From NCBI GenBank assembly GCA_043803765.1, contig JAZDJQ010000018.1:95795-159794 (forward strand): DNA of 64,000 nucleotides. The letters run 5' to 3'. The notes under the pieces were generated by a model. The model was given only the letters and a program-made list of their open reading frames with translations, did no database searches and was not told the DNA's origin. Below, piece after piece: positions 18,517 to 49,550 of this stretch. The first letter of the stretch is position 1, and each line of letters starts with the position of its first letter. The translations under genes were made by a program, and so were the position numbers. This stretch comes from Candidatus Iainarchaeum sp. Its GTDB lineage: Archaea; Iainarchaeota; Iainarchaeia; Iainarchaeales; VGJJ01.

Positions 18517-18542
18517 AAAAACAATACGGGGCGGGAGAGATT
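18517..18542 (-). repeat. Displaced copy of the tRNA-Pro(CGG) 3' end plus flank
   Basis: 25/26 identity to 18609-18634 (offset 92). Confidence 0.85.
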
Positions 18543-18618
18543 CAGAACGCACCCCTTTTTCTTTAAAAGAAAAAGTCGCGCCCGGTCAAAAAGAACAACC
18601 CATTCACAAAAAACAAAA

Positions 18619-18691
18619 CGGGGCGGGAGAGATTTGAACTCTCGCCTGCACCTCCCGAAGGTGCAATCCTACCAGGCTAGACGACCGCCCC
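18619..18691 (-). tRNA. tRNA-Pro (CGG)
   Basis: GGGGCGG/CCGCCCC, GCACC-TTCGGGA-GGTGC, GAGAG-TTCAAAT-CTCTC. Confidence 0.95.
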
Positions 18692-18760
18692 AGTAAAAAC
18701 AGTCGTATCTCACACTGTGTGAAATACCCTTAAAAATGGGCTTTCCATTGGTTGGGCAGT

Positions 18761-19975
18761 ATGGAACCCTTTAAGCGCATCACATTCATTTTTGCCGCAT
18801 ACGCTTTTTGTGTTGTACTCGCGGATCCCATTTTTGGTATTTATTTAACAGGAAAAGGATACGACCCCGCATGGCTGTCCATCATCCTCTCATCGTTTTC
18901 ATTAACCATGATCGCGGCAGCCCCGCTCATCGGAGGAATATCCGACAATTGGGGACGCAGACCACTTGTATTGTTTGGAATTGGAGCAGAAATCATTGCA
19001 CTCTTAACGTATGCGATGTTCACCCACCCGCTCATCATCTTTTTAGCACGAGTATTAGAAGCATGCGCCTATGCAAGCGTTATCTTTGTGGCCATTGCTA
19101 AAATGGAAGACATAGTGGCCGAAAGAAAAGAAACAAAATTAGGAGAAAAAATAGGAAAAAGTCTTTCCATTGGAAAAATAGGATTTGTACTCGGACCAGT
19201 AGTAGGAGCATTCATTGCAACAAAATGGGGACTAACAGCCCCTTTCTATGTTGGTGCAGGATTGCTCGTGATGTTAGGAATATGGTACCTTTTTGAGAAA
19301 CATCACATTCATCCCAAACCACCACTCGAAAAATTAGAATTCAATCTTATTCCACGCTTCCGCGAATACTTAAAAAATCCCCCACTCAGGGGATTGGCAT
19401 TCGTAGAAGTAGCCCACCAAACCAGCATGCCCGTATTGTTCGTATTCTTTCCCCTCTTTTTAGTGCAGGATTTAGGATTATCAATCGAATTAGTAGGAAT
19501 AGCCATTTTAGTAAGAGAAATACCCATGCTACTCCAGTTCTGGACGGGAAAAATAACCGATTCGTGGGGATCACGCAAAAGTATTCTTATTGGAAGCAGC
19601 TTGGCAGGAATCGCCATGATCGGATTATCGCAAGCGCACACATTCGATGCAGTATTAGTCGCATCTTTCCTATTTGGAGCAGGAACCAGTTTGCTTGGAA
19701 TCAGCAGCCTATCACTCATCTCGGGCATCGCAGAAAAAACAAAACAAGAAGGAACATTTCTAGGGACACAAGTGGGAATCAGCAAGGGAGGAGCATTCGT
19801 TTCCTATATTTTAATAGGAGTCCTCGTAGAAATAACCAGTATTCCAACCGCCCTCCTCACCATAGGAGCAATCATCCTATTAGGGGTCATTATTGGAGAA
19901 AACGATTTAGGATACAAGACTTTCCCACTACCCTCACCCAAACGCCTCGTGAGCGGGCTATTCCATCACCGATAA
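18761..19975 (+). CDS. MFS transporter
   Basis: About 12 TM segments; motif A twice (GGISDNWGRR, GKITDSWGSR). Confidence 0.92.
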   Translation: MEPFKRITFIFAAYAFCVVLADPIFGIYLTGKGYDPAWLSIILSSFSLTMIAAAPLIGGISDNWGRRPLVLFGIGAEIIALLTYAMFTHPLIIFLARVLEACAYASVIFVAIAKMEDIVAERKETKLGEKIGKSLSIGKIGFVLGPVVGAFIATKWGLTAPFYVGAGLLVMLGIWYLFEKHHIHPKPPLEKLEFNLIPRFREYLKNPPLRGLAFVEVAHQTSMPVLFVFFPLFLVQDLGLSIELVGIAILVREIPMLLQFWTGKITDSWGSRKSILIGSSLAGIAMIGLSQAHTFDAVLVASFLFGAGTSLLGISSLSLISGIAEKTKQEGTFLGTQVGISKGGAFVSYILIGVLVEITSIPTALLTIGAIILLGVIIGENDLGYKTFPLPSPKRLVSGLFHHR

Positions 19976-20015
19976 AATATAGGCTTTAAAGGGCATTCAA
20001 CCCCCAATCCAGAGT

Positions 20016-21983
20016 ATGAGTGGAACTGAAAAACCATCTGCCCACCATGAAGTCACATGCGGATTAGAAGTACACCAGCAATTAGACACGGGAAAATTAT
20101 TCTCACGATGCCCCACCGTTATGCATGAAAAAGCACCGGATTTCACATTCAAAAGAAAACTACACGCAGTAGCAAGCGAATTAGGAAAAATGGACATCGC
20201 GGCAATAGAAGCCGCAGGAAAAGGAAACACCTACATCTACCAAGGAAACTATGACAATACCAGTCTCGTAGAAATGGATGAGGAACCCCCTTCTTCTATG
20301 GATGACGACGCATTACGCGTGGCAATCGAAGTAGCTCTTTGCTGCCACGCAACCATTGTAGATGATGTTCTAGTCATGCGAAAAAATGTAGTGGATGGAA
20401 GCAACACATCCGGGTTTCAACGGACAACACAACTCGCAATAGGAGGAGAATTAATCATCGCCAATGGAAAAAAAATCAGACTCCAAGGAGTAGCAATTGA
20501 AGAAGACTCGGCACGACCCATGGAACGAAAAGGAAGCGAAGTCACATATCGATTAGACCGACTTGGATTCCCACTCATTGAACTTGCCACGCAACCGGAC
20601 ATTCATACACCCGAGGAAGCAAAACTCACCGCACTCAAAATGGGAGAAGTCATGCGCATCACCGGAAAAGTAAAAAGAGGACTAGGAACAATACGACAAG
20701 ACATTAACATTTCCATTCCGGGAGGAGCTAGAGTAGAATTGAAAGGAGTACAGGAATTAGAACTAATTGATGAATACGTACGAAGAGAAATGAACCGGCA
20801 AAAAAAACTACTCACACTCAAGGAGATGCTCAGCCAAGAAGGACTAACCAAAGAAATGATTGAAAGCCAAAGCGGAGTAGATATAACGCCTATTCTAAAA
20901 AATAACCAAGCAAAAATGATACGAAACGCATTGGAAAAAAAACACGCGATTCACGCGGTAAGACTACCCCACATGAAAGAAAAATTGAGAATAGAAGTCC
21001 AACCAAATAGGCGCGTTGGGAGTGAAATCTCATCCTACGTAAAAGTCAAAACAGGACTCATGGGGCTATTACACGGAGACGAATTACCCGGATATGGAAT
21101 AACACAAGAAGAAGCACAACACATTTACGAGAACATACACGCGAAACAAGAAGATAGTTTTGCTATCGTCATGGGATCGCTCAACCAAGTGGAACACGCC
21201 ATTCATGTAATAAAAGAACGCACTGCACACCTACTGGAAGGAATACCCGAAGAAACAAGGAATGCAATTGAAGGAGGAAATTCGGAATACTCACGACCAC
21301 TACCCGGAGCGTCACGAATGTATCCTGAAACCGACATCAAGCCTATCCATATTGAAGAAGAATGGATAGAAGAAATACGAAAAAATCTGCCAATGTGGGG
21401 AGAAGAGAGAAAAAAATACTACACACAAAAAGGATTATCCGAAAAACTAGCGGAAGAAATGATGCTCGACAACAAAGCACGATTCTTTGAACACTTATTG
21501 AAAGAAGGATACGATCCTACAACCTGCGCAACGCTGCTGCTCTCCACGCTCAACACGATACGAAGAGAAAACCCATTCGTGGATTGCCTCACGAATCAAC
21601 AATTGGAAAACCTCCTCGAGAACGAAAGAAAAAAACTAATCATGCGGGAACATTTTCCTACTATTCTACGTGAATGGGTACAGCGCCCAGAAGAATCACT
21701 AAGCGAAATCATGACACATGTTAAAGTGGAAACCGCCCAGGAAGGAGAAGTAGAACGCATCATCAAACAAATAGTAGACAAAAACGAACACTTAGTATTA
21801 ATCAAAGGAAAGAATGCCCAATCTGCACTAATGGGAATAGCCATGCAAGCATTAAGAGGAAAAGCACAAGGATATTTCATTGCACAAGCGTTAGAAAAAG
21901 AACTCGAAAAACGCACGGAAAAAAATAACACTTTTCATGGAGAAAACTTTTCCCACAACGATACAAATTCTTTTTCAAACTGA
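20016..21983 (+). CDS. gatE: Glu-tRNA(Gln) amidotransferase subunit E
   Basis: GLEVHQQL, DGSNTSGFQRT, RGLGTIRQD, RPLPGASRMYPETD. Confidence 0.96.
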   Translation: MSGTEKPSAHHEVTCGLEVHQQLDTGKLFSRCPTVMHEKAPDFTFKRKLHAVASELGKMDIAAIEAAGKGNTYIYQGNYDNTSLVEMDEEPPSSMDDDALRVAIEVALCCHATIVDDVLVMRKNVVDGSNTSGFQRTTQLAIGGELIIANGKKIRLQGVAIEEDSARPMERKGSEVTYRLDRLGFPLIELATQPDIHTPEEAKLTALKMGEVMRITGKVKRGLGTIRQDINISIPGGARVELKGVQELELIDEYVRREMNRQKKLLTLKEMLSQEGLTKEMIESQSGVDITPILKNNQAKMIRNALEKKHAIHAVRLPHMKEKLRIEVQPNRRVGSEISSYVKVKTGLMGLLHGDELPGYGITQEEAQHIYENIHAKQEDSFAIVMGSLNQVEHAIHVIKERTAHLLEGIPEETRNAIEGGNSEYSRPLPGASRMYPETDIKPIHIEEEWIEEIRKNLPMWGEERKKYYTQKGLSEKLAEEMMLDNKARFFEHLLKEGYDPTTCATLLLSTLNTIRRENPFVDCLTNQQLENLLENERKKLIMREHFPTILREWVQRPEESLSEIMTHVKVETAQEGEVERIIKQIVDKNEHLVLIKGKNAQSALMGIAMQALRGKAQGYFIAQALEKELEKRTEKNNTFHGENFSHNDTNSFSN

Positions 21984-22495
21984 GAGTTTAACTCATTTGA
22001 ATGAATCACGAGAACATTCTCATTATTCCCGCTCACCCCATTTCCCGTCCAATTCATACTGCCCGTAATAACCCCATCATTATCCACCACGGCAAACTTA
22101 TGATGCATTAAATTAGGATTCGTATCAATACGAACCGGAATACCTTTCTCTGCCAGTTCATCATGCAAAGAAAATTGACTACCCGCCTGTTGCTTTTCCA
22201 CAATCACCCGAACGTCTAATCCTCTTTTGTGGGCAGCCATTACCGCATCAGCCAAATTTTGATTCGTAAAAGAATACATGGCAATCCACACACGAGAATG
22301 GGCATTATTAAGAAATTGAATAGGAATAGACTCGCAACTGAGAGAAGGACAGAACGCAGACTGAATACCCGAAAAGGAAACAGAAGAAGAAGGAGCCGAT
22401 ACAAGCCCGGTTAAAGGAAGCCACTGGGGAAAAAACAATCCCACCATAAACGATAGCAAAAGCAACCCAAAAAGGAACTTAATAGAAAAATTCAT
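21935..22495 (-). CDS. Exported phospholipase D-family (Nuc-like) nuclease
   Basis: Signal/anchor helix; single HxK(x4)D (MHHKFAVVD), GSMNWT, NNEN. Confidence 0.88.
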   Translation of the reverse strand: MNFSIKFLFGLLLLSFMVGLFFPQWLPLTGLVSAPSSSVSFSGIQSAFCPSLSCESIPIQFLNNAHSRVWIAMYSFTNQNLADAVMAAHKRGLDVRVIVEKQQAGSQFSLHDELAEKGIPVRIDTNPNLMHHKFAVVDNDGVITGSMNWTGNGVSGNNENVLVIHSNELNSQFEKEFVSLWEKFSP

Positions 22496-22564
22496 TATCC
22501 GAAAAAGGGCTGGGGGGAATTAAAAGCCTATTTAAGGAAAAGTTCCCTATTAACCACACGGAAA

Positions 22565-22637
22565 AGCCCCGTCGTCTAGTGGTCAAGGATATCGGACTTT
22601 GAATCCGAGGACCGGCGTTCGAATCGCCGCGGGGCTA
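22565..22637 (+). tRNA. tRNA-Gln (TTG)
   Basis: AGCCCCG/CGGGGCT (A1-U72, archaeal Gln), TCGGA-CTTTGAA-TCCGA, CGGCG-TTCGAAT-CGCCG. Confidence 0.96.
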
Positions 22638-22711
22638 CTTTCTCACCGGCCTACGGCGGGTGAAAAACACCCGCCTCAGTAGTCCATTAGCGCCGGCTGA
22701 TAATGCGGCCG

Positions 22712-22741
22712 GTTCGGTATCGCTACGAGGCTACTTTCTCA
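22712..22741 (+). repeat. Degenerate displaced copy of the tRNA-Gln 3' end plus flank
   Basis: GGCTACTTTCTCA exact at 22633-22645 and 22729-22741; similarity extends back to GTTCG (~25/30). Confidence 0.75.
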
Positions 22742-22859
22742 TGGGTGGGCAAAACGCCCCTATATTAATCCTCCCTTTCAAGATTGGTAAATACCCATGC
22801 ATTCGATATCTTACACACACCAAGGTATCCATTCTAACATGGAAGAAAACTACCACCCG

Positions 22860-24239
22860 ATGAACACCATCTCTTTTTCTCCATTCGTAAAAAAAGCAGT
22901 CGACGAATTGGGATATATTCAATGGACCCCTATTCAAGAAAAATCGATTCCCATCATTCTTGAAGGAAAAGACATCATTGGGCAATCTCACACTGGAAGC
23001 GGGAAAACGGCCGCATTCGGACTACCTATCATTGAACGCATTCAACCCAATGGACGCGTGCAAGTGCTTATTCTCGTTCCCACCCGTGAATTAGCCGAAC
23101 AAGTCATGCAACAAATGAGAAAATTTTCCAAATACAAACGAGTGAGCATTACATCCGTATATGGAGGAGTAGGATTAGGAGCCCAAATCCAACACCTGCG
23201 AAAAACCGATATTGTAGTAGGAACCCCGGGACGAATACTTGACCATTTATCACGCGGAACATTCAACCCTGAAACAGTAAATGTACTTGTCTTAGACGAA
23301 GCGGACAGAATGCTGGACATGGGATTCATTCGGGATATGAAAAAAATAATGAGCCAACTACCAAAAAAAAGACAAACCATGCTGTTCTCTGCCACCATCA
23401 CAACCGAAGTACAACATATCGCACAACAATTCATGCAACACCCACACATTGTCAAAGCAGAGGAATTCACAGACAAACCAAAATTAGAACAAACATTCTA
23501 TGATTTAGGAAGAAAAGGAGACCAAAAATTCGGATTACTACTCCACATACTCAAAACAGAAAAACCAGCCCATGCTATTATTTTCGCCGGAACAAGAAGA
23601 ATGGTGGACAAAGTAGAACGAAACCTCAACAAACAAAACATTCACGCACAAGCCATTCACGGAGGTTTGTCACAAAACCAACGCAAACGGACGATTGATG
23701 AATTTCACCGAGGAACATTTCATGTGCTGGTTGCGAGCGATATTGCCGCAAGGGGACTCGACATACAGGATGTATCCCATATTATTCATTATAACATTGC
23801 CCGCACGCCAAACGAATACATTCACCGCTCAGGAAGAACAGGAAGAGCAGGAAAAAAAGGAAAAATAATCTCCATTGTAACACCGCCTGACAATGCCTTT
23901 TTCAGGGCAATTTTCAGGGACACAACGCACAACTTGAAAGAGTTGCCCTTGCCCGAATTTGAGAATATTCCATTTGGCAATGCAAAAGGAAACAGGAGAG
24001 AAGAAAATTATTCTCCTCATACAACATATGGACAACAAGGAAGAGGACAACGATTTTTCCCACGAAAAAGAGAAATAGAAGGAAAACCATTCTGGAGAGA
24101 AAAACAAGGGAAAAAAATAGGAAACAAACCCAATTGGAAAGGGAAAAAAACCTTTGCCAAAAAAAATTACACACAACGAGAGGAAATCAAGATAATAAAA
24201 CATTTTGGGTTACAGCACGCACCAAAAGACGATAGATAA
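22860..24239 (+). CDS. DEAD-box RNA helicase
   Basis: Q motif, GSGKT, PTRELA, DEAD, SAT, HRSGRTGR; basic C-terminal tail. Confidence 0.95.
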   Translation: MNTISFSPFVKKAVDELGYIQWTPIQEKSIPIILEGKDIIGQSHTGSGKTAAFGLPIIERIQPNGRVQVLILVPTRELAEQVMQQMRKFSKYKRVSITSVYGGVGLGAQIQHLRKTDIVVGTPGRILDHLSRGTFNPETVNVLVLDEADRMLDMGFIRDMKKIMSQLPKKRQTMLFSATITTEVQHIAQQFMQHPHIVKAEEFTDKPKLEQTFYDLGRKGDQKFGLLLHILKTEKPAHAIIFAGTRRMVDKVERNLNKQNIHAQAIHGGLSQNQRKRTIDEFHRGTFHVLVASDIAARGLDIQDVSHIIHYNIARTPNEYIHRSGRTGRAGKKGKIISIVTPPDNAFFRAIFRDTTHNLKELPLPEFENIPFGNAKGNRREENYSPHTTYGQQGRGQRFFPRKREIEGKPFWREKQGKKIGNKPNWKGKKTFAKKNYTQREEIKIIKHFGLQHAPKDDR

Positions 24240-24253
24240 GGTTGAGTGAAATC

Positions 24254-25761
24254 ATGCATCAACTAGAAAACTTTTTGCAAAAAGCCCGAACGATCGCCGT
24301 TGTCTGCAACCAGTGGGGGGATACGGGAAAAGGAAAACTCGTCGACATGCTCGCCGAAAATTGGGCCGACATTATCGCACGCGGAACGGGAGGAGCAAAT
24401 GCAGGACACACTGTAGTAAACCAAGGAAACGAATACATTTTCCACCTGATTCCATCCGGAATTCTCCACGATCAAAAAGGGAAAATAAACATTTTAGGAG
24501 AAGGAATGGTCATTGACCCTCACATTCTGATTGAGGAAATAGAAAAACTAGAGAACATGGGATTCACCTGCACACATCTACGCATCTCCCACAACGCCAA
24601 ATTAGTAATGCCACACCACATCCTGCTCGACCGAATAAAAGAATCAAAAAAAAAGAAGAAAAAATAGGGACCACCGGCAGAGGAATAGGTCCTGCATATG
24701 AAGACCATATTGGAAGAAGAGGAATAACCGCAAACGACCTAAACAACACGACTATTTTTAATCAAAAAATAACCCAAGCCTGCACACAGGCAAAAAATCA
24801 ATTGAAGGCAATGGAAGCAGAAAAAGAAACGATTGAAACAATCATGAAAAGCCCCGCGCTCCAAAAAGGACGATTTTGGGATGAGGAAAAAATATTCAAT
24901 ATAGAAGAAATCATCCAAACGTATACTCAAGAGTATGGAAAAAAACTCAAACCATTCATCTCAGATACTGAAACATTCATGCGCCAAAACGTGGGAAGAA
25001 AAAATATCCTATTAGAAGGAGCACAAGGGCTACTGCTAAGCGTCGACTATGGAACACGGCCCTATGTCACATCCTCCGATCCATCCATCCGAGGACTCGC
25101 CAAGGGAGTGGGGTTGTTAGAAAGCAATGTGGATTTGACAATTGGAATAGCCAAAGCCTACATGACACGAGTTGGAAAAGGACCATTCCCAACTGAAATG
25201 GGAGGAAAACAATCCGAAATACATTGCGATAATCATGCCAACAACCGAGAATACGAAAAAGCCCAATTCACCGAGGCCAACATCAACCATTCCAACCCCC
25301 TTCTCCAAGGAATTGGATTTAGGATTGCAGGAGGAGAATACGGAGCCACCACCAAACGCCCTAGAAGGACAGGATGGCTCGATTTGGTCGCACTCAAATA
25401 CGCCATGCAAGTAAATGGAAAGGCCCTCTTTCTAACCAAAGTAGACGTATTAGACGCATGTACTGAAATCAAACTCTGCAACCAATACCGATACACGGGA
25501 CCAGATTATTTCTTTGGAGGAAAAACATTCCACGAAGGAGATATCATAAACTCATTCCCAAATGACAGCACCATCCTCGCAAATGTGGAACCGCAATATC
25601 AAACACTCAAAGGATGGAAAAAAGACACATCCAAAATACACCTCGAAAATGAACGACCAACCGAAATGAACGAAATGATTCATATCATCGAAAAAGAAAC
25701 AGGCGGAAAAGTCATTGGCCTGTCAAACGGTGCGGAGAGAGAAAAGATATTGTTCTTCTAA
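24254..25761 (+). CDS. purA: Adenylosuccinate synthetase, interrupted by a -1 frameshift at ~24646-24664
   Basis: QWGDTGKGK and GANAGHT in frame 1; KIGTTGRGIGPAY, EGAQG, GATTKRPRR and TKVDVL in the -1 frame. Confidence 0.92.
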
Positions 25762-25823
25762 CCCGAACCGATTTGGGGCAAGATTGGGAATGGTTTATAA
25801 CCCAAAACCACGCTCTCATTGAA

Positions 25824-27575: not shown

Positions 27576-27585
27576 AAAAAATAAC

Positions 27586-28975: not shown

Positions 28976-28987
28976 ATAATGGAAAAA

Positions 28988-40209: not shown

Positions 40210-40773
40210 TTAATAATATTTCTCAATTCCGCCAAATCCTATTTGTTTGTTTTCTTTAGTTTTGGCAATGAAATTGTTAAGCCTCTTTTTGAATTCTTCA
40301 GGACGCTCTCGCGCGTCATCTATATACGCAATGCGTATTCTCTTGTAGGTGTCTAAAAACGCTTTGTAATTTTTCCACACCCTACTATCTTTTTTAATAG
40401 CATCAACAATATCTTTTGGAAATACAAATTTTTCAGCGGCAAATTCTTTTGCTTTCTCGAATTGTGAAGGGTGGAGTAAATTGTTCTCTAAAAGCCATTT
40501 CATTCGCTCTTTGTTTAGTTGAGAATAAGCACTTTTTGGATTCCGTGGAGAAAAACGCTGCATACAATTATCTTCATCAAGAGATTTAACCGTGCTGTCA
40601 ATCCAACCAAAACACAATGCTTGTTCTACTGCGTCATTGTATGAAATTCTTTTTTTGCCAGAGGACTTTTTTGGATAAATCAACCAAATCCCTTTTTCTT
40701 TATCAAAATTCTTCGCCAGCCATTTACGCCAGTCTTTTCTATTTGTTGAGTAGAGTGTTTTAAGTTCGCTCAT
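40210..40773 (-). CDS. YdeI/OmpD-associated family protein
   Basis: WRKWL...AVEQALCFGWIDS...FSPR...S.LNK. Confidence 0.88.
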   Translation of the reverse strand: MSELKTLYSTNRKDWRKWLAKNFDKEKGIWLIYPKKSSGKKRISYNDAVEQALCFGWIDSTVKSLDEDNCMQRFSPRNPKSAYSQLNKERMKWLLENNLLHPSQFEKAKEFAAEKFVFPKDIVDAIKKDSRVWKNYKAFLDTYKRIRIAYIDDARERPEEFKKRLNNFIAKTKENKQIGFGGIEKYY

Positions 40774-40880
40774 GAGTTGAGTGTATTGATTAAAATTTAT
40801 AAACAACCAGTTTTCGGAGCGAAGCGGAGAAAGTCTGCTGTAGCCCGCCTCAAGTTTAATAGAAACCATTAAGCCATGGT

Positions 40881-41135
40881 CTAAATCGAGTCATACACAT
40901 TTTCCCTTTTGCCCACTTTGATGATTAGAATCTCCAATTTTTGTTTCGTAATATCGGCCACAATTCGATAATCTCCTATTCTCATACGACTAAATTCTCT
41001 TCCCGTGAGTTTGAAGAAATAAAGAAAAGGATTGATACGTGTCCTCTCAAGAGCAGTAAGAATACGTTCCTGCACATGGTTTTCAAGTTTATCCAACTGT
41101 TTCTTGGCCGTATCCGAGTATAATAGCTCATACAT
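40881..41135 (-). CDS. relE: RelE/ParE-family toxin
   Basis: AKKQLDKL...RMRIGDYRI...VGKRENVY. Confidence 0.9.
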   Translation of the reverse strand: MYELLYSDTAKKQLDKLENHVQERILTALERTRINPFLYFFKLTGREFSRMRIGDYRIVADITKQKLEILIIKVGKRENVYDSI

Positions 41136-41362
41136 TACAAGCCCAACTTTTTCTTTACTTGCTCATGCGTATAGAATTTCCCTTCCCGATATTCTTTGCG
41201 GGCTTGTTCAATTTCTTTAAGTGTTTCTTCATTAAACATTTTGTGATCTTCAATAAGATCCCAAACGACCCCTTCATAGGTATCACGATCATTGAGCTTG
41301 TATTTGTCCAATTCTTTCTTGAGGGCTTGACTGACTTGAATACTCGTTTTCTTTTCCACCAT
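41135..41362 (-). CDS. Antitoxin partner of RelE
   Basis: TSIQVS...TYEGVVWDLIE...THEQVKKKLGL; TAATG coupling with relE. Confidence 0.8.
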   Translation of the reverse strand: MVEKKTSIQVSQALKKELDKYKLNDRDTYEGVVWDLIEDHKMFNEETLKEIEQARKEYREGKFYTHEQVKKKLGL

Positions 41363-41628
41363 AGAACACTATAACGTGCTATAAATTAAAAAGCTATACC
41401 AAAAAAAGGGAATATTCAACTCCCTATTTTAAACCCGAATGGGACATACTAGTACCTAGATGCGTACCTTATTGAGTATCATGACGGGAATAGCCCCTAT
41501 TGCTTTACTTGTACGCATCAACTCTAATCGCCCCTCATTATCCCCCTTTTAGAGGCATTTTACATTGTCTCTCGAAGGCCTATTTTTTAACTCAAATTAT
41601 CATCAAAAAAAAGGAGCGATCAAAAAAT

Positions 41629-42924
41629 ATGGAACGAAAATGGATTGACGCAGTACTGCACACGAAAACGGACAAAGCACTCCTACGAGGGTGGATTAAA
41701 CGAAAACGAGATTTCAAAGGAACACTCATATGGCTGTTGCGCGATGGGAGCGGAGAAATGCAAGCCGTCCTATCAAAAGACATGATTAAAGATACGAAAG
41801 CATACGAGGAAGCACGAAAAGCACTCATGGAAAGCTCCATTGAAGTGGAAGGCATCATCAAAAGCGAAGAACGCGCCCCGGGAGGAAAAGAATTACACGT
41901 AGAAAAAGTAAAAGTCATTCACGCAGGAGAGGAATTCCCAATAGGAAAAGATTTGAGTGAAGATTTCTTGTTAGATGTACGTCATTTATGGCTGCGTTCT
42001 ACCAAAATGCAGCAAGGAATGAAAGCATCTGCCGTTGTATTTGAAGGATTCCATGACTTTTGCAAAAAAGAAGGATACTTAGAAGTACAATGCCCCATGT
42101 TTGTTTCAGGAGCAGTAGAAGGAGGAAACGAGCTTTTTGACGTGGAATACTTCGGCAAAAAAGTACAATTAACCCAATCATCCCAGTTCTACCTCGAAGT
42201 ATACGCCCACGCACTCGAAAAAGTATACACGATTGCACCATCCTTCCGAGCAGAACCCTCCCGCACGAGGAGACACTTGACAGAATTTTGGCACGCGGAA
42301 TGGGAAACCGCATTCTCACATATCGATGAATTAATGGACTGGGAAGAACGAATGATTAAGCACATCGCAAAATACGTATTGGAAAAAGCACCCGCACAAT
42401 TAGAATACTTCGGGAGAAAAAAAGAAGAACTACAAAAAGTAATCAAAGAAAAATTCCCCCGTTACACGTATGATGAAGTATTCAAAATCGCCCGAAAAAA
42501 ATTCCCAGAACTAAAATGGGGAGACGACTTGCAGGAAGCACACGAAAGAGAAATAACAAAAGATTTTGACGTACCCATTCTGGTACACCACTATCCTGCC
42601 ATACTCAAGCCCTTTTACCACCGACCCGACCCTGAAAGAAAAGAAACCGTTCTCTGCTGCGACATGCTCGCACCCGAAGGATATGGAGAAATAATTGGCT
42701 CAGGAGAACGCTGTTGGACGTATGCCGAAATCATAACAAGAATGAAAGAAGCAAAACTAAAAGAAAAAGACTACCAATGGTACGTGGACTTGCGAAAATA
42801 CGGAAGCGTACCCCACACCGGAGGAGGAGTAGGACTCTCACGATTAACCGTATGGCTATTCAAAATGCAGCACATCCGCGACGCAGTAGGATTCCCAAGA
42901 ACAATGAACAGGGTGGCGCCGTAG
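41629..42924 (+). CDS. asnS: Asparagine-tRNA ligase
   Basis: RHLWLRS, LTQSSQFYLE, RRHLTEFWHAE, GEIIG, YGSVPH; GGAG SD before ATG 41629. Confidence 0.93.
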   Translation: MERKWIDAVLHTKTDKALLRGWIKRKRDFKGTLIWLLRDGSGEMQAVLSKDMIKDTKAYEEARKALMESSIEVEGIIKSEERAPGGKELHVEKVKVIHAGEEFPIGKDLSEDFLLDVRHLWLRSTKMQQGMKASAVVFEGFHDFCKKEGYLEVQCPMFVSGAVEGGNELFDVEYFGKKVQLTQSSQFYLEVYAHALEKVYTIAPSFRAEPSRTRRHLTEFWHAEWETAFSHIDELMDWEERMIKHIAKYVLEKAPAQLEYFGRKKEELQKVIKEKFPRYTYDEVFKIARKKFPELKWGDDLQEAHEREITKDFDVPILVHHYPAILKPFYHRPDPERKETVLCCDMLAPEGYGEIIGSGERCWTYAEIITRMKEAKLKEKDYQWYVDLRKYGSVPHTGGGVGLSRLTVWLFKMQHIRDAVGFPRTMNRVAP

Positions 42925-42990
42925 ACAAAAATAGAACAAAAAACAAGGGGGCCCGAATAAGGATTTTTCCCCTTGACTCCCAATTTCAGA

Positions 42991-45135
42991 CTATTGACAG
43001 TTGCTTCCGTCTCCTGTGGGGGTGCAAGTAGCATCAGTGGTTATGAGAACCTTGTCCACGTACATTTCGGATACCTTGTTAGGGACTCCGACCATATCAC
43101 AGTTCACAGTAAGAATCACATTAGCCGAAGTTCCTGTAATCGGCAGGGTGGAAGAAGCAGGCACCCAAGTAAATGCAACTGGAGTAACGAAAGGAGAATT
43201 AGCGGGAAAAGAATAAGACGGCGTACTTCCACCAAATGAGATGCTCCCTCCACTAGCCCCAGTCCCCGCATTGGCCCCCCTAATCCAAACCTTATATGTT
43301 GTAGGAACGGATGCGGGCGCTTTCAATCCAGTGATAGTGTATGTCGCAGTATTGTTGGCCGCAGTACAAATAGTAGGCCCATTTTTCGCATCTATCACCT
43401 GCTGTGAATTGTAACTTGCAGACTGTAACCCACTCTGCAATGTCCACGTCTCCGGCTCGAATATTAGCGCTTCCTTGCTTGAAGTGGTAGGCGATGAAGA
43501 TGCCCAAAGCGCGCAGTTGGGGTATCCATACGCGCTAACCCCATCCAACTTGTCACAGAACAAAACTGCAGAATAATACGGCTGACTTGGAACCAAACCT
43601 GGTCCCGTCTGGTAATCAATAGATTGGTTCACTACTGTATTCCCAGCAGCGGAACCAGTTTTCGTCTTACCTGCCCCAATAATCGCGGGAATCGAACCCG
43701 CCGTAATCAAACTGGAATCATACACAATCCTATAATCCGTAGTAGAAGGCGAATAAGTGGCCCCCAAATAATTATCCAATGGTTCTGTCCAAGACAAATC
43801 AATCACGCCGCCATTCGTGACTCCGGTTGAAACCGAGGGAGTGGGAAGCGGACCGGGTGCCTCGTCATCAACCAAAAATGTTCCAGTAGGCGTATTAGAA
43901 GCCAGTTGGTATTGTGTGTCGGAAGTTACATCCCCTACGATTCCAAATACTGGAGCGGTTAATGGATTATAGACTAAGAAAAGATTTTTGATAAATGCAT
44001 TTGAAAGATTGCCCACACTCGCACCATTCGATGGAGAAAACGATGGATGGGGAGACGCAACAGGGGAACGCGCCAAAAGCGCATCCACCGGAGGATCGAG
44101 GGCGCCTTTGGAAACTGGGAATGATAATCCATTCACCACTGCAATTCCACTTGTATTTGCTCCGATTCCGCTCGTGAATGAGCTGCCGGTCCATGTGAAC
44201 GTGTATTTGAGATATCCAGGAGTAGAATCCAAACTTGGAGAAGAAACTGCCAATGACGAGAATCCAGCAGGCGCAGAAGGTGTTGCTGTAACCGGAGGAG
44301 ATGAAATGGCACAATTAGGAATAGGAGTGACGCTATCACATGCACGCAGAATGAAACTATATTGGGTTCCATTTGTGAGTCCGGTGATGGGCAAGGGCGA
44401 TGTGGTTGTAGGGATGGTAACCATATTTCCAGTTCCATTACTCGTCGCAGAAAATGATGAAATAGTCCCCGAAGCCGTTGTGGCATACCCAATTTCATAA
44501 ACGATAGGGAGCGTGTCCAGTTCGGTAGCCGAAAACGTAGCATCCACCTGCGCATCCCCAGGGATCACAGAAAACAAAATGCCAGATGGAGGAGTCGTAT
44601 CGCTTCCACCCCCCGTAGTACAAGATGATGTATCAAATGTACACGATGTCACGTTGCAACTCAATGTTCCTCCAGTATAACTGCCAGAAATTGTTGTACA
44701 ATCATTTCCCCCTAAATCCGATCCATCACAGTCCTCCGTTCCCTCTTGAACATTATTTCCACAAAATTCAGAAGGCCCACCTGAACATGATGACGTGTCA
44801 TACGTACAATTTGCATTACAACTTAATGAACCACTCGAATATCCTAGTGAAATACAGTCAGATCCATCTAAATCAGCACTATCACAATACTCAGAGGGTT
44901 GATTTTTTTCACCATCTCCACAAAAAGGGTCAGGATCCCCAAACGCCGCATCTATAACGATGTGTTGTTGGTACGCACCGAGTCCTGCGCTCACTTGGTT
45001 CTCCGTGGCGGGATAAATGCCTTGAAAAACAATCCCCAAAACAATCGTTGCTACGAGGACAGCACCCCCAATCAAAAGCAAGTATTCCAATGCACCTTGA
45101 CCTTTCGAATGATTAGCCGAATGACCTCGCGACAA
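42991..45135 (-). CDS. Large class III signal peptide (pilin-like) surface protein with Cys-rich repeats and FN3-like domains
   Basis: KG|QGALEYLLLIGG; two CG.....E.CD..DL.G.DC repeats; GLTNGTQYSF. Confidence 0.85.
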   Translation of the reverse strand: MSRGHSANHSKGQGALEYLLLIGGAVLVATIVLGIVFQGIYPATENQVSAGLGAYQQHIVIDAAFGDPDPFCGDGEKNQPSEYCDSADLDGSDCISLGYSSGSLSCNANCTYDTSSCSGGPSEFCGNNVQEGTEDCDGSDLGGNDCTTISGSYTGGTLSCNVTSCTFDTSSCTTGGGSDTTPPSGILFSVIPGDAQVDATFSATELDTLPIVYEIGYATTASGTISSFSATSNGTGNMVTIPTTTSPLPITGLTNGTQYSFILRACDSVTPIPNCAISSPPVTATPSAPAGFSSLAVSSPSLDSTPGYLKYTFTWTGSSFTSGIGANTSGIAVVNGLSFPVSKGALDPPVDALLARSPVASPHPSFSPSNGASVGNLSNAFIKNLFLVYNPLTAPVFGIVGDVTSDTQYQLASNTPTGTFLVDDEAPGPLPTPSVSTGVTNGGVIDLSWTEPLDNYLGATYSPSTTDYRIVYDSSLITAGSIPAIIGAGKTKTGSAAGNTVVNQSIDYQTGPGLVPSQPYYSAVLFCDKLDGVSAYGYPNCALWASSSPTTSSKEALIFEPETWTLQSGLQSASYNSQQVIDAKNGPTICTAANNTATYTITGLKAPASVPTTYKVWIRGANAGTGASGGSISFGGSTPSYSFPANSPFVTPVAFTWVPASSTLPITGTSANVILTVNCDMVGVPNKVSEMYVDKVLITTDATCTPTGDGSNCQ

Positions 45136-45405
45136 TGTCTCATCTCCCCATCACGGAAATCATTCCCGCCTATATAAACAAATCCTTTTCTTTTCGAGTC
45201 TTGTTTTACTCTTTGAGGGGCGAACCAAAAATGGTATTAAAACCACTCAATCAAAGAGTAGTTGTGCCAGGTTTAATCGGCCTGTCGACTCTCCTCACAA
45301 AAAGTAATGGACCGGCGGATAAGGGGTTCCGGCCCCCCCTTTTTTTCCCAAGCATTAAAAAGAATCAAGAATATATCATTCAGTATAAAGTGAAGAGGTG
45401 AGGAA

Positions 45406-45798
45406 ATGAAAAGAATACTTGGGCTGTTTATAGTAGGAGTACTGCTCCTGCCATTCGCTTATGCTAATGAGTGGGTTGGAATTCTCACTAATCCCCTTCG
45501 TTTTCTAGCGAATGAAGCATTACAGTTTGATTTTATCACCCGCATTATTGTGTTCTTTTTCTCTCTTGCAGTTGCCATGATTGCCATTGCCGCATGGAAA
45601 CGCAAACCCAATTTTAGGTTGAAATGGGTTGCTCTTGCATTCGGATTGCTTGCATTAAAGTGGCTGTTAAAAGTAATGGATTTGTTTGTAAGCTCGGGAC
45701 AATTCTTCCCCGACCATGCGGAAAATGTGATTGAACTCATCAGTTTAGTATTGATTGCGATTGCCATTTTTTCACCACGGATGGAGAGCAAAGGATAA
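45406..45798 (+). CDS. Small multi-TM membrane protein
   Basis: 3-4 hydrophobic helices; GAGGTGA SD. Confidence 0.75.
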   Translation: MKRILGLFIVGVLLLPFAYANEWVGILTNPLRFLANEALQFDFITRIIVFFFSLAVAMIAIAAWKRKPNFRLKWVALAFGLLALKWLLKVMDLFVSSGQFFPDHAENVIELISLVLIAIAIFSPRMESKG

Positions 45799-45811
45799 CG
45801 GGGTTTTCTCT

Positions 45812-46414
45812 ATGGCGGACGACGCATCATTTGCGAAAGCCCTTGAATTAGACGTACGGAGGAAGATTTACCAAATAATTGAATCGTCCCCCGGACTTCA
45901 TTTTAGGGAAATTCAACGACGAAGCGAATTAGCAGTCGGAAGTTTACAATACCACTTGGATTATTTACAAAAACACCATATTATTCGCACGCAAAAAGAA
46001 GGAAAATTTGTACGGTATTATTCCGTACGCGGACCTACCGTGGATAGCGGGAGCGGAACACAAATAGGACAACAAACCATGGCGTTTTTACGCCATGAAT
46101 CAACAAGAAAAATTATGCTATACTTGTTGAATGTCAAAAGAGCCAACAATGAATCCATTGCCAGAGAAATAGGATTATCTCCCTCCACTACGAGCTGGCA
46201 TTTGGATAAGATGGTGGAAGGAAACGTTATTTTGCGCCAGCGGGAAGGAAGAAAAACATATTTTTCGCTTATCAATCCGGAATCTGCCAAACAATTATTA
46301 GTGAATTTCAAACAAAGCTTCTTTGATATCGCCGTGGATAATTTTGTTTCACTCACGGAAGAATTAGCAGGAGAAAATGATGCACCGAATGATTATTCCC
46401 CTGAAGTGCAATGA
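45812..46414 (+). CDS. Double winged-HTH transcriptional regulator
   Basis: RRKIY.II...PGLHFREI...GSLQYHL and IAREIGLSPSTTSWHL. Confidence 0.88.
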   Translation: MADDASFAKALELDVRRKIYQIIESSPGLHFREIQRRSELAVGSLQYHLDYLQKHHIIRTQKEGKFVRYYSVRGPTVDSGSGTQIGQQTMAFLRHESTRKIMLYLLNVKRANNESIAREIGLSPSTTSWHLDKMVEGNVILRQREGRKTYFSLINPESAKQLLVNFKQSFFDIAVDNFVSLTEELAGENDAPNDYSPEVQ

Positions 46415-46893
46415 GCGGCATCCCCAATTTTCACATTGTTCTTTTCAGCCCAGCCTGCATTGACCTCCAAGACGTATCGTGCTTTATCAGAAGGCGTGTA
46501 GAACGGGCACGAGTCTTCCGCGCAGGGAAGCATGTGCAGAATATCAACTACTCGATATTGGTCATCCAACCAAATTCCATCTAATGGAATGAGCGTGTTT
46601 TTCATCCAGAAAGAATACACATCCAATGAGTCAAAAACGAACAACATTCCAGCGTTTTCATCCAATGAATAACGAAACATCAATCCCCTTTCCTTTTCAT
46701 CTGGAGTCGAGGCGATTTCCAATGAAACACAAGAAGAAAAACAAAGCAAGGAAGGTGAAGAAATAGTTGAAATGATAGGAAGGTGTTCCGTTGACGTTCG
46801 TTCAATTGGGGTAGTAAGAAGAATACCTAAAATAATAAGAGCAATAATAATGAGTAGAACACTTGCCCCTAGGAGAATTATTTTGCGCATCAT
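46393..46893 (-). CDS. DUF192 family protein
   Basis: RGLMFR...GMLFVF...FWMKNTLIPLD...VLEVNAG. Confidence 0.92.
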   Translation of the reverse strand: MMRKIILLGASVLLIIIALIILGILLTTPIERTSTEHLPIISTISSPSLLCFSSCVSLEIASTPDEKERGLMFRYSLDENAGMLFVFDSLDVYSFWMKNTLIPLDGIWLDDQYRVVDILHMLPCAEDSCPFYTPSDKARYVLEVNAGWAEKNNVKIGDAAHCTSGE

Positions 46894-46929
46894 GAATAAT
46901 GAAAAGTTGAAAGGACTAATAAAACCAGA

Positions 46930-48123
46930 CTATTTCCCTGAAATAATCTCAATCACGTCACCGGATTTGAGAACGTGTTCTTTTCCTAACAGCATGCGTG
47001 TTTTCACATCAATGGCCTTAATGAAATGCTTCCCGAAGTCGGTGTGCAGGCGAAAAGCAAAATCAAGTGTAGTGGAATGAGGAGGCATGAGGAAACAATC
47101 CGGGAGAACATTTCCGTCTTTATCTGTTAATCCCTTTGTGCCGCCCGGAAAAATAGCCATATAGTTCAATGCAGAAAAAACCGTTTCGTCTAATACTTTT
47201 TGAACACCCGTTCCATTGAGAGGAATAAGGACTTTTTCCCGAATATAGGACAATGCATGCGATTGTGCCTCGCTCAAACCATTGTGAGACACGAAAGAGG
47301 GGTTTCCCTGCACGTATTCGATAAGCTTATTCTTATCCGCTTTTTTTAGAGTAAGTTCAGCCTCCGAGGAACAAGGAATAATCATAAGATGAGGAAACTC
47401 TTTCCTTAATTTTTCAACATTTTCCAATGCATGAGGAAGGTCGCACTTATTCGCCGCAATCACCATGGGCTTGGAAATAATACGCAGTGAGTGAATGAAG
47501 GAACGCTTATGCGTTTCATTCCATTCACTAAGTTTGGTATCGACCAGTTTTGTTTTATTTAATGCGGCATCCACCTGTTTTTCAGTAATACCTAATCCTG
47601 AAAGTCCTTTTGCAACATTCTCAATCAGTTGTTGCTTTCCCTGCACGATGGAACGAGCAAACTTCCCCCAATTACTCTCAAGAATACCCAGCATCCAAAG
47701 TTCTAACTCTTCTTCCAAGAAACGAACATCCATGCAAGGATTATGAGAACCGCTTTCAACCTGTTCTCCTTTCTCGTTGGTACTACCGCTTGCATCCACC
47801 ACATGAATCAATACATCGGCTTGACGCAAATCATCCAAAAACTTGTTTCCCAATCCCTTTCCTTCATGTGCGCCTGGAACAAGACCTGCCACGTCCAACA
47901 ATTCCACTGGAACAAAACGCACATGATGAATACAAAAGCCCGAGCGGGGATTGCACTGCACACTAAAATGGGAGTCTGCACACGGAACACGGACGAAGCC
48001 TATCCCGCGATTGGGCTCAATCGTAGTGAAAGGATAGGATGCGCGCGCCACATCCACTAATGTCGCGGCAGAAAAAAAAGTGCTTTTTCCCGATGAGGGT
48101 TTTCCAACAATCCCGATAAGCAT
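46930..48123 (-). CDS. Archaeal YchF/Ygr210-like Obg-family GTPase
   Basis: [27 protein letters not shown] domain. Confidence 0.92.
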
Positions 48124-48144
48124 ATCATCATTCCAATCAAGAGA

Positions 48145-48786
48145 TTAAGCAATCCTTAGTTTGTTGAATTCTTTAACGGTTTGGTCGGTTTGGGGAGGGG
48201 TCAATGCCAAATCCAATACAGAAGGGTTAGCCGTAATGGTGCATCCTAATGCAAACGCCTTGGAAACATCCTTGGGCGTACGCAAAGAAGCGGCGAGAAT
48301 ATGAGCATCCAATTCATGCGCTTCAAACGCCGCGATCATCTCTTCTATTTCCCCCCATGGATCCAATTTGGCTTCCTGCATGCGCCCCACATAGGGAGCA
48401 ATGTAGTGGCCTCCTGCAAATGCGGAAAGAATGCCCTGCGCGGCTGAAAAAACAGCTGTAAAACAAAGCTCCATTTTATCATGATTAAGAGTAGGAGCAA
48501 TGGAAAAACCATTCCGGTCAGCTGGAATCTTAATAATAGCATGAGGAAGCATTTCATGAATCGTACGAGCATCCTCTAATAACTCGTCAGGTGTTTCCCC
48601 CACGGCTTGAACGAAAAGGATTTGTTCCTTATTGAGCAAATTAGACAAACGTTGAAGGTGACCAAAACGGTCTTTCACACGCAACTTGGAAAGAAGTAAT
48701 GGATTAGTTGTAATGCCCCTAACAAAAGGCTTTTTCAACCAGCGCTCGGCCTCCAAAAGGTTCGCCGTATCCACAAAGATGGTCAT
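48145..48786 (-). CDS. Transaldolase / fructose-6-phosphate aldolase family protein
   Basis: IFVDTAN, GITTNP, IKIP, YIAPYVGR, LAASLR. Confidence 0.9.
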   Translation of the reverse strand: MTIFVDTANLLEAERWLKKPFVRGITTNPLLLSKLRVKDRFGHLQRLSNLLNKEQILFVQAVGETPDELLEDARTIHEMLPHAIIKIPADRNGFSIAPTLNHDKMELCFTAVFSAAQGILSAFAGGHYIAPYVGRMQEAKLDPWGEIEEMIAAFEAHELDAHILAASLRTPKDVSKAFALGCTITANPSVLDLALTPPQTDQTVKEFNKLRIA

Positions 48787-48885
48787 ATAAAAAAGAAAGT
48801 GTCTCGCAAGGGTTTTTAACTAATGGCTTTTGAGAGAAGGATGTTCCTACGTGATTATTTTTAAAAAAAAACAGGCAAATCAAAC

Positions 48886-49398
48886 CTATTTTTTTGGTTT
48901 TCCAAAAAATCCTTTTTGACGCAGCACTTCATGAATGACGATTGGGAGTATCGTTCGAAGCGTATAGAATCGCGTCTGATTCAGCATAGGAACGTTAACT
49001 ATTTTCTCCATCACGGCCATTTTTTCTTTGCTGAGACCGCCCACTTCTGTCCCAAATACAATGAGTTGATTTCCTTTAGCAAAATTAGTATGAAATAATG
49101 ATTCCCCAAAATGAGGGGATGTTCCGATAATGGTGTATCCGATTGATTTTAAGTATTTGATTCGATCAAAAAAATTATGCTCATAGTGAACATTGCTAAC
49201 GGAAGGATTTTTTCTAAATCCGGGTTTCCACGCATCGATTTGTCTCAAAACTTTTGGATGAGTGTGAGAAATGGAATTTCCCGTAACGTCTACTTCACGA
49301 TTAGTTGCGATCGCCAAATGAATAATCTCCGCCATGTCTCTCGGATCCTTAATCGTATCAACAAGGATGCGCGCATCGTTGGTCTTTTTGGTTTTCAT
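48886..49398 (-). CDS. SPOUT (SpoU/TrmH-like) RNA methyltransferase
   Basis: IVFGTEVGGLS...VNVPM. Confidence 0.75.
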   Translation of the reverse strand: MKTKKTNDARILVDTIKDPRDMAEIIHLAIATNREVDVTGNSISHTHPKVLRQIDAWKPGFRKNPSVSNVHYEHNFFDRIKYLKSIGYTIIGTSPHFGESLFHTNFAKGNQLIVFGTEVGGLSKEKMAVMEKIVNVPMLNQTRFYTLRTILPIVIHEVLRQKGFFGKPKK

Positions 49399-49420
49399 GC
49401 TTTACTTCCTTTAGATGAAT

Positions 49421-49550
49421 TAGAATTCAATCCCCTTCCGCGCATATATCTTCTTCACGCCCGCAACCCCGGGCGGCGTGGAAGTTAGGGCTGTCAAGAC
49501 AGCCCAGACAAACTAGAATTCAATCCCCTTCCGCGCATATATCTTCTTCA
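49421..49550 (-). repeat. 37-bp perfect direct repeat of the cobO 3' end flanking a 56-bp palindromic insert
   Basis: TAGAATTCAATCCCCTTCCGCGCATATATCTTCTTCA at 49421-49457 and 49514-49550. Confidence 0.95.

Follow-up and report, generated by a model that had tools for sequence, protein, structure and literature searches.

Partial copies of tRNA genes are normally read as the scars of kilobase-size viruses or plasmids. In archaea and bacteria, integrase-dependent elements and their derivatives without an integrase, the cis-mobilizable elements (CIMEs), are bracketed by a direct repeat of the 3′ part of the gene that they enter, restore that gene, leave an outer relic with its inner boundary in the T loop, and may be stacked at one site; the T-loop boundary is said, in work of Williams from 2002, to be a known class of integrase sublocation. 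The integrative elements of the Thermococcaceae measure 9-23 kb, according to the accessible part of the published account (PMC9897764). Here we describe inserts that share all of these architectural traits but are only about 45-135 bp long, consist of one to three hairpin modules, and are non-coding, with no integrase and no open reading frame (ORF). They also differ from integrase elements in that one cargo family occurs at many tRNAs, in both orientations, with relics of gene 5′ ends as well as 3′ ends, and with variable repeat lengths and junctions. The starting point is a stretch of 64,000 nt from an archaeon of the Iainarchaeota (contig JAZDJQ010000018.1, positions 95,795 to 159,794; hereafter ‘the window’), in which the genes for tRNA-Pro(CGG), tRNA-Gln(TTG) and the corrinoid adenosyltransferase cobO are each followed, a short distance downstream, by a second copy of their own 3′ end.

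MITEs (miniature inverted-repeat transposable elements) offer another close comparison, and are defined in the accessible part of one source by terminal inverted repeats and target duplications of 2-10 bp (PMC11602168). The inserts resemble them in being small, non-coding, multi-copy and non-autonomous, with a lineage-specific copy number. However, the two ends of the full element (inspected by eye in an alignment, A1, of 25 full copies) are a TTTCG-loop hairpin on the left and a T-run/A-run hairpin on the right, which are not inverted copies of each other, and the target duplications are 9-45 nt long, variable and bound to gene termini, instead of the fixed 2-10 bp given in that part of the source.

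On the evidence set out below, we read the inserts as miniature non-coding hairpin cassettes that insert at the ends of stable-RNA genes and sometimes of protein genes, and we put the probability of this account as a whole, with the way of moving favoured below included, at about one half. The cassettes apparently form an undescribed family of gene-end-regenerating elements, since no description of such cassettes was found in the literature searched, the coverage of which did not extend to subscription journals.

Genomes and searches

The genome under study, G000, to whose contig C18 the window belongs, is a metagenome-assembled genome (MAG) of 1,022,810 bp in 19 contigs, 93% complete and with 46 tRNAs, from the Iainarchaeota, a DPANN lineage. 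The comparison set comprised 17 genomes (species) of the genus, including G000, plus 14 relatives from other genera; one congener, G015, is complete in a single contig (1,048,949 bp, 43 tRNAs). The direct-repeat finder was run on the window with an upper limit of 200 bp between the members of a pair. All 46 tRNAs of G000 were searched, each against its own flanks, excluding the result for tRNA-Ala(CGC), where the match is entirely flank sequence; the relic count for G015 likewise excludes two neighbouring tRNA-Lys genes that match each other. The comparison of the cobO site among relatives leaves out G010 and G007.

Three duplicated gene ends in the window

ARAGORN finds five tRNAs in the window, and tRNA is the sole Rfam family matched there at the gathering score. 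The repeat finder returned 13 direct-repeat families, three of which are those that a sequence-only reading had pointed out earlier: a 26-nt repeat with 96% identity at a spacing of 92 (tRNA-Pro), a 23-nt repeat with 87% identity at a spacing of 96 (tRNA-Gln) and a 45-nt repeat with 93% identity at a spacing of 93 (cobO). Together with the ARAGORN and PF02572 matches to the genes themselves, this establishes that the three duplications are real (Table 1). The inserts between the copies are 48-73 bp long and contain no ORF. The small perfect palindromes described in them are present, and the inserts fold, as single-stranded DNA (ssDNA), into structures more stable than those of shuffled sequences (z of -2.07 for tRNA-Pro, -3.11 for tRNA-Gln and -3.63 for cobO; for the tRNA-Gln insert, none of 200 shuffles folded equally well). 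The hairpin of the tRNA-Pro insert combines a GACCGGGCG core with a T-run/A-run stem and a 3-nt loop.

Table 1. Duplicated gene ends, inserts and relics in the window (coordinates count from the first letter of the window)
Feature	Position	Strand	Description
tRNA-Pro(CGG)	18618-18692	-	Intact; ARAGORN; Rfam tRNA, 55.6 bits
tRNA-Pro proximal repeat copy	18609-18634	-	Final 17 nt of the gene and 9 nt of trailer
tRNA-Pro insert	18549-18608	-	T-rich trailer, then shortened B-family hairpin
tRNA-Pro junction motif	18543-18548	-	GTTCTG; T-loop-like half site with one additional pyrimidine, abutting the relic
tRNA-Pro relic	18517-18542	-	T-loop position 58 to gene end, and trailer; 25/26 nt the same; native flank follows
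tRNA-Gln(TTG)	22565-22638	+	Intact; ARAGORN, Rfam
tRNA-Gln proximal repeat copy	22623-22645	+	
tRNA-Gln insert	22646-22718	+	C family; hairpin 22651-22682, linker, hairpin 22693-22712, junction TTCGGT 22713-22718
tRNA-Gln relic	22719-22741	+	Decaying; 20/23 nt the same; differences would disrupt acceptor and T-stem pairing
cobO-type corrinoid adenosyltransferase	49513-50115	-	Intact, 200-aa ORF; PF02572 CobA/CobO/BtuR, E 2.8e-53
cobO proximal repeat copy	49506-49550	-	Final 38 nt, stop codon, 4 further nt
cobO insert	49458-49505	-	F family; variable hairpin 49488-49505, spacer TAACTTCCA, GC-rich hairpin 49458-49475 abutting the relic
cobO relic	49413-49457	-	Own TAA stop codon retained

The start of a SpoU-methylase gene (ATG at 49398) lies 14 nt beyond the cobO relic. 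On the other side, directly upstream of cobO and on the same strand, there is an ORF of 2469 aa (window 50151-57560, minus strand).

Families of hairpin cassettes

That the inserts share no primary sequence, as the sequence-only reading put it, is correct for the three compared with one another, but each of them has homologues elsewhere. The tRNA-Pro insert belongs to the B family, which in G000 is also found 3′ of tRNA-Ala(GGC) and tRNA-Arg(GCG) and has many copies in relatives. The full element of this family (20 loci in seven relatives) measures about 125-135 bp. Its D module, in which a linker separates a variable-stem hairpin with TTTCG loop from another hairpin, of the type GGTATCG...CGATACC, is followed by a T-run that includes an invariant TTGACTGG and then by the B hairpin. 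The full D+B element stands behind at least 12 different tRNAs, with a matching relic each time, and several of these elements are inverted, the B end abutting the functional tRNA and the D end the relic. In G015, two copies that are 100% identical over 107 nt lie behind different genes, tRNA-Gly(GCC) and tRNA-Gly(TCC). The most extreme stack found has four cassettes in a row behind one tRNA-Ala, with three relics.

The second half of the tRNA-Gln insert (C family) is homologous to an insert 3′ of tRNA-Val(TAC) on contig C3, and the GC-rich hairpin of the cobO insert (F family) is near-identical, on the opposite strand, to that of elements at three tRNA-Arg genes, where the element is placed between a 5′ relic and the gene. 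A further hairpin, A, lies 3′ of seven other tRNAs of G000 and is elsewhere repeated in tandem about every 47 bp. Such arrays, of 3-6 units, were seen outside the window at C18:54734-55016, C6:12328-12510, C11:56155-56300 and C1:50100-50250; two A-family arrays are directly 3′ of tRNA-Ala(TGC) and tRNA-Lys(TTT), the others are intergenic, and the arrangement is reminiscent of bacterial interspersed mosaic elements (BIMEs).

The structure of the full element is supported by the 25 copies of alignment A1, in which two hairpins account for 96.4% of cells being paired, against 75.4% after shuffling (none of 500 shuffles was as high). Slid controls give 37-45%, compensatory changes occur in 13 of the 15 pairs, and only 1 of 364 cells holds a G-U pair. 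This strict Watson-Crick covariation suggests that the hairpins act as DNA, or on both strands, and not as typical RNA. Five cassette loci searched against Rfam at E<=1 gave no credible match.

Cassettes were detected in 15 of the 17 genus genomes, and their abundance is uneven, with 21, 17, 15, 15 and 12 BLAST hits of the full element in the five richest genomes and 0-6 in each of the remaining twelve. Outside the genus, 14 relatives yielded tRNA matches only, apart from one match of 24 nt. A degenerate 22-nt pattern for the B core gave 17 hits in viral contigs, none of them with the hairpin; over public genome contigs the pattern was too loose, with 19 genuine loci among the 80 matches listed, all 19 labelled as uncultured archaeon or Candidatus Iainarchaeum and hence uninformative on spread outside the genus. 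An ORF enclosed by D and B modules, as would be expected of an autonomous parent, was not seen in G015, where no systematic search for one was made. Since G000 is a MAG in 19 contigs, an assembly artefact has to be considered, but it is hardly credible, as the same architecture is present in 15 of 17 independently assembled genomes, the single-contig one among them, and the copies show point differences.

One arrangement in G015 (G015:C1:356560-356860), 3′ of tRNA-Met, deserves separate mention. A stretch of 85 nt that runs from the tRNA end through the D module into a hairpin, of which it includes the left arm, is exactly repeated there; the copies are 21 nt apart, these 21 nt finish the hairpin, and the second copy ends mid-hairpin. 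We could not explain this arrangement by any single simple event.

Frequency and spacing of the duplications

Across G000, the 3′ end is repeated downstream of 14 of the 46 tRNAs, with spacings of 46, 58, 61, 61, 69, 76, 78, 80, 92, 96, 98, 108, 111 and 211, and the 5′ end is repeated upstream of five, with spacings of 72-93. In a stricter test, the last 17 nt of the tRNA matched its own 250-nt downstream flank with a score of at least 10 in 13 of 46 cases, while the controls gave 0 of 46 for the own upstream flank and 10 of 1974 for non-cognate pairs of tRNA and flank; the tRNA-end duplications are thus far beyond chance. In G015, about 10 of the 43 tRNAs carry a 3′ relic, at spacings of 101-236. 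The phenomenon extends to the 5S rRNA gene of G000 (C12:36244-36360, minus strand; Rfam, 58 bits; with cassette and relic, C12:36123-36360), directly 3′ of which lies a two-hairpin F-type cassette, bracketed by an exact 33-nt repeat at a spacing of 99 that is made up of the final 11 nt of the 5S gene and 22 nt of T-rich trailer and is the longest of the other repeats of the genome. Duplications of 9, 14, 16-21, 33 and 45 nt were observed. At the short end, a unit with a period of about 46 bp 3′ of tRNA-Thr(GGT) (C14:36900-37002) terminates two times in the final 8-10 nt of the tRNA, a type of relic so short that a scan for 12-nt repeats almost overlooks it.

The similar spacing at the three window sites had been taken earlier as near-constant, at 92-96 bp, and as pointing to micro-cassettes of a fixed length of about 90 bp. 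Neither idea survives the genome-wide view. For spacings of 20-400 bp, the whole of G000 contains 248 exact direct repeats of 12 nt or more, and their histogram is flat, with no peak near 93 bp (11 repeats at 70-79, 4 at 80-89, 9 at 90-99, 9 at 100-109 and 9 at 110-119). The tRNA relics range as listed above, and the 43 distinct junctions pooled from G000 and its relatives have spacings of 62-236, with a mode at 130-140; a full two-module cassette gives about 125-140 bp. The spacing at a site is set by which cassette, complete or shortened, occupies it, and the 92-96 bp of the window is a coincidence of three short or truncated cassettes.

Empty, filled and refilled sites

Orthologous loci in the genus provide empty sites for all three window genes. 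More specifically, of 15 loci with tRNA-Pro(CGG), seven have a relic, seven have none and one is cut by a contig end, and the filled sites differ in cassette type and often hold several cassettes. At tRNA-Gln(TTG), relics are present in G000, G007 and G002, with a different cassette in each, while 12 loci lack one and one is cut. At cobO, a homologous F insert with relic is shared by G000, G006, G004 and G002, with compensatory changes in its stems; G003 has a different two-hairpin insert without a relic, 10 genomes are empty, and G012 carries a cobO-type F insert at another locus. A metagenome scan with the cobO protein returned 80 loci, three of them at 72% identity or more, which repeat the pattern of G003, G006 and G001. 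On a tree of the cobO protein, the four genomes with the insert do not cluster (the best tree requires 4 changes), which is only suggestive of repeated independent hits, as two well-supported branches would still allow a single origin.

The nearest pair of genomes, G008 and G015, look like near-twins on the cobO tree, yet are only about 80% identical in the flanks. Comparison of the two reveals a 118-bp inverted cassette between tRNA-Pro(TGG) of G008 and an older D module that both have in common, with a duplication of 9 nt only, and a second insertion that replaced half of an older cassette and has no relic. Tandem units of gene end plus hairpin occur at tRNA-Pro in G002 and G006 and at tRNA-Met in G015. 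Another frequent target is tRNA-Ile(TAT), found throughout the genus, at G000:C18:73429-73503 and also in G004, G005, G008 and G015; this tRNA is uncommon in archaea, where AUA is usually read by a modified CAU anticodon.

The earlier suggestion of a single recurrent process that places short, hairpin-bearing, gene-restoring inserts at gene ends is supported by these families, empty sites and stacks, and the notion of minimal non-autonomous elements agrees well with multi-copy families of lineage-specific copy number that leave sites empty or stack in them. Insertion takes place at gene termini, in either orientation, with repeated use of sites, usually with 9-45 nt duplicated, and with fast turnover within the genus.

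Long islands at these sites, which would have pointed to simple decay, are not what relatives contain: in up to 16 of them no long island was found at any of the three sites, which are either empty or occupied by other small cassettes. Deletion remnants of kilobase-size virus or plasmid integrations are for this reason very improbable, even though tRNA 3′-end repeats are the classic scars of integration and G000 does have an island with repeat cores, at tRNA-Met. The inserts form separate, conserved units in many copies, and their stems covary; identical copies are found at two tRNAs; 5′ relics and both orientations occur; and the roughly ten relics of G015 exist in a genome without an island-type integrase.

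The same comparisons bear on a host function. The cassettes could be terminators or processing signals (bidirectional oligo-T/hairpin structures) that are selected by the host and spread by tandem duplication and gene conversion, the relics being by-products. The A and B hairpins carry a T-run in the leading arm whichever way round they lie, which puts an archaeal-type terminator right after the gene; the tandem units just described would suit such a history, and an orthologous cassette in G008 and G015 is about 93% conserved against about 80% for its flanks (counted by hand). This is distinctly unlikely nonetheless, given that many species have empty sites and that copy number varies between 0 and 21 in one genus. 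Furthermore, the near-absence of G-U pairs is unusual for RNA structure, Rfam offers no match, and placement before tRNAs as well as after a protein gene is unlike one RNA function.

Relics and their junctions

Relics resemble the gene beside which they lie. G000 and G002 have different discriminator bases in tRNA-Pro, and in both genomes the relic agrees with its own gene. Likewise, the two cobO copies within a genome match at 37 of 38 positions in G000 and at 36 of 38 in G004, against 27-34 of 38 between genomes, the exception being G006 with 30 of 38. Because the relics track the host's own sequence, lineage-specific bases included, this comparison of letters shows them to be, in all appearance, produced in place from the host's own gene. 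We consider it quite probable that the inserts are mobile cassettes by which the end of the target gene is duplicated in situ. One cassette end joins the gene terminus and the other a point 9-45 nt within the gene, which lies in the T loop at tRNA 3′ ends and in the D loop at tRNA 5′ ends; the stretch between the two joins is consequently present twice, as an intact copy on the gene side and an outer copy that decays as a relic.

The junctions have further regularities. At tRNA 3′ ends, the own-gene part of the relic begins at T-loop position 58, and 5′ relics have their inner boundary in the D loop. A motif containing TTC lies at most 8 nt before the relic at 31 of the 43 junctions, compared with 14% of random 8-mers. 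In 29 of these 31, the gap from TTC to position 58 is 2 nt (20 junctions), 3 nt (eight) or 4 nt (one), whereas in a real T loop it is 1 nt. Immediately ahead of position 58 the junction has a G in 18 of the 28 tRNAs whose own base 57 is A, so this base does not come from the host tRNA. This T-loop-like motif is present regardless of which cargo end faces the relic, but F-type junctions (cobO, 5S, tRNA 5′ ends) lack it, and there the foot of a GC-rich hairpin abuts the relic. Small motifs that recur at junctions are GTTCGTTC and TTCTTC. In G015, nine of 10 genuine B-containing copies touch a tRNA end; among these 10 copies the duplication is clear in four, reduced to a T-loop fragment in one and absent in five.

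Several candidates were set aside at this level. Archaeal tRNA introns, which in the Thermoproteales transpose between tRNA loop positions, similarly place related short sequences at loop positions of many tRNA genes; here, however, a complete tRNA lies upstream of each insert, changes in the relics break pairing, and there is nothing to splice. An integron attC site, an IS91-like GTTC target, a C/D-box small RNA, a split-tRNA half, a primer-binding site, and RNA-templated copying in which inosine-57 is taken for G were dropped on inspection by eye, because box motifs are missing, the upstream tRNA is complete, there is no CCA, no reverse transcriptase and no fixed geometry.

Candidate enzymes

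G000 encodes three tyrosine recombinases: one XerA-like (in the region of C1:34509-34997), one within the tRNA-Met island and one other. A XerA-like recombinase is present in every genome searched, and in G015 it is the sole tyrosine recombinase, with no island-type integrase, despite the relics at about ten tRNAs. In the tRNA-Met island of G000 the repeat cores begin deeper in the T stem and are without the T-loop-like motif. G000 also has a solo IS200-type Y1 transposase at the start of a contig outside the window (C4:232-591; PF01797, 101 bits). Small hairpins flank this gene (C4:202-693), and it lies about 260 bp from tRNA-Arg(CCT). Neither RVT_1 (PF00078) nor Cas1 (PF01867) nor TnpB has a match in the 93%-complete G000; Y2_Tnp was not matched either, but control genomes were likewise unmatched, so this search carries no weight.

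The reverse-transcription system considered in the sequence-only reading loses its footing with the missing RVT_1 match. Retroelement copies made by target-primed reverse transcription are disfavoured on the same ground and by relics that have no CCA tail, and Cas1 integration of the casposon or CRISPR type by the lack of a PF01867 match and the variable duplication length. Structure-guided recombination of ssDNA, proposed along with reverse transcription, keeps some standing, as the stems pair in Watson-Crick fashion only.

Transposition of ssDNA by an HUH enzyme (Y1, IS200/IS605, RAYT-like) that recognises hairpins, as for REP (repetitive extragenic palindromic)/BIME or PATE (palindrome-associated transposable element) sequences, is a further candidate. 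There is a clear likeness to REP/BIME-RAYT systems (RAYT, REP-associated tyrosine transposase) and to IS200/IS605-derived palindromes, as the cassettes are extragenic covarying hairpins with stems of Watson-Crick pairs only, A-family units recur in tandem about every 47 bp in a BIME-like manner, the spacer from the last hairpin to the junction is short and constant, and a solo Y1 gene exists in G000. Such an origin is nevertheless highly unlikely. Y1_Tnp (PF01797) occurs in 3 of 17 genus genomes, as opposed to cassettes in 15 of 17, and was not found in G015, G005, G011 or G008, the genomes with the most cassette hits; a co-occurring Y1 transposase is thus lacking, and the cassettes are, unlike REP/BIME sequences, strictly bound to gene ends. 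Between the inner junction and the first hairpin lie about 17-21 nt at tRNA 3′ ends and 35-45 nt at cobO, 5S and tRNA 5′ ends, so this distance is not constant. IS200/IS605 and REP elements are not known to make a target duplication, while duplications are present here, and no common tetranucleotide is found at the cobO, 5S and tRNA 5′ junctions.

How the cassettes may move

Tentatively, and at somewhat less than even odds, we favour a moving step that is carried out by host replication or repair without a recombinase. Host replication or repair would copy cassettes between gene ends, either by copy-choice (template switching) or by capture at staggered breaks; DNA hairpins would promote this copying at highly transcribed RNA genes, with re-entry in the universally conserved boxes of the T loop or D loop and exit at the gene terminus. 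The reasons for preferring host machinery are that the cassettes have no coding content, that no recombinase tracks them, that junctions and lengths vary, that both orientations occur, that one cargo reaches many targets, and that the stems are strictly Watson-Crick. TMEJ (theta-mediated end joining) and MMBIR (microhomology-mediated break-induced replication) produce similar short duplications, palindromic filler and variable junctions with no dedicated enzyme; these are one-off mutations in the accessible parts of the accounts of them, while here the filler is a conserved, structured, multi-copy family at RNA-gene ends. It is possible, if rather doubtful, that the cassettes are selfish DNA with no enzyme of its own, whose hairpins would provoke copying by the replisome or repair machinery and whose duplication would keep an essential gene alive.

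A number of observations weigh against the inferred copying by the host. Specifically, (i) most relics are preceded by GTTC, one or two pyrimidines and a purine, irrespective of the cargo and of which way it lies, and the purine is not that of the host, so that this conserved motif resembles the invariant core of a site for site-specific recombination and not a random repair scar; (ii) the cassette ends are fairly sharp, with the first hairpin 0-5 nt from the tRNA end, which suits an enzyme with precise chemistry; (iii) the lineages in which cobO seems to have been hit at one and the same position are apart on a single-gene tree, an argument for site specificity, although its well-supported branches allow one origin; (iv) no microhomology is visible at the re-entry junction of a recent insertion at tRNA-Gly(TCC); (v) about half of the G015 copies are relic-free, so duplication is either not obligatory or quickly lost; and (vi) part of the genome is missing from a MAG (93% complete here), and a virus or plasmid could encode a mobilising enzyme.

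The strongest of these counter-arguments, the T-loop-like motif and the sharp ends, fits a recombinase with an attachment (att) core in the T loop. The cassettes would then be mini integrative cassettes, each bearing a T-loop-like core and a gene end as att site, and moved in trans, through conservative site-specific recombination, by a tyrosine recombinase (XerA-like, or the integrase of an island or virus); the XerA-like enzyme, present as it is throughout, is the only universal candidate. Direct repeats that restore a gene are the hallmark of integrase elements, and GTTC-pyrimidine-purine before position 58, with a purine foreign to the host, is what would be expected of a phage-type core (attP) on the left of a crossover at 57/58. 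The cobO site adds to this, both in the apparently identical position hit in separate lineages and in G006, whose relic is nearer to the copies of G000 (33-34/38) than to its own gene end (30/38) and has the left junction TAGTTTGTCT in common, as would result from import of a cassette.

We still regard this alternative as unlikely. The same cargo lies at 12 or more tRNAs with matching relics, which would demand a new gene-specific att segment for every move, and it does so in both orientations relative to the relic. The duplications vary from 9 nt at tRNA-Pro(TGG) of G008 to 33 nt, including 22 nt of trailer, at 5S. The one classical island of the genome, at tRNA-Met, has a different core that lacks the motif, the 17 viral-contig hits included no genuine copy, and circles of double-stranded DNA of 50-130 bp are poor substrates for recombinases. 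As for membership in the integrative elements or CIMEs, the repeats of gene ends are there, but neither an integrase gene inside the inserts or a kilobase-size parent at these sites in relatives nor a single att site with a fixed crossover was found.

Implications

Scars that are normally put down to viruses and plasmids here frame small non-coding inserts at about a third of the genome's tRNAs, at the 5S rRNA gene and at one protein gene. For annotation, this means that the relics can be mistaken for tRNA fragments or for the att sites of islands. If the cassettes are moved by an enzyme, the activity is an undescribed one and possibly a new role of XerA; if no enzyme is involved, they would be mobile DNA whose only drivers are the structure of the DNA and repair by the host. 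In the latter case, the tRNA ends of streamlined archaea would be sites of continuing, recombinase-free cassette turnover, and a possible source of tRNA leaders, trailers and terminators, perhaps even of non-canonical introns and split tRNA genes. The finding therefore bears on how the leaders and trailers of DPANN tRNAs are to be read, and on how tRNA genes gain insertions at loop positions.

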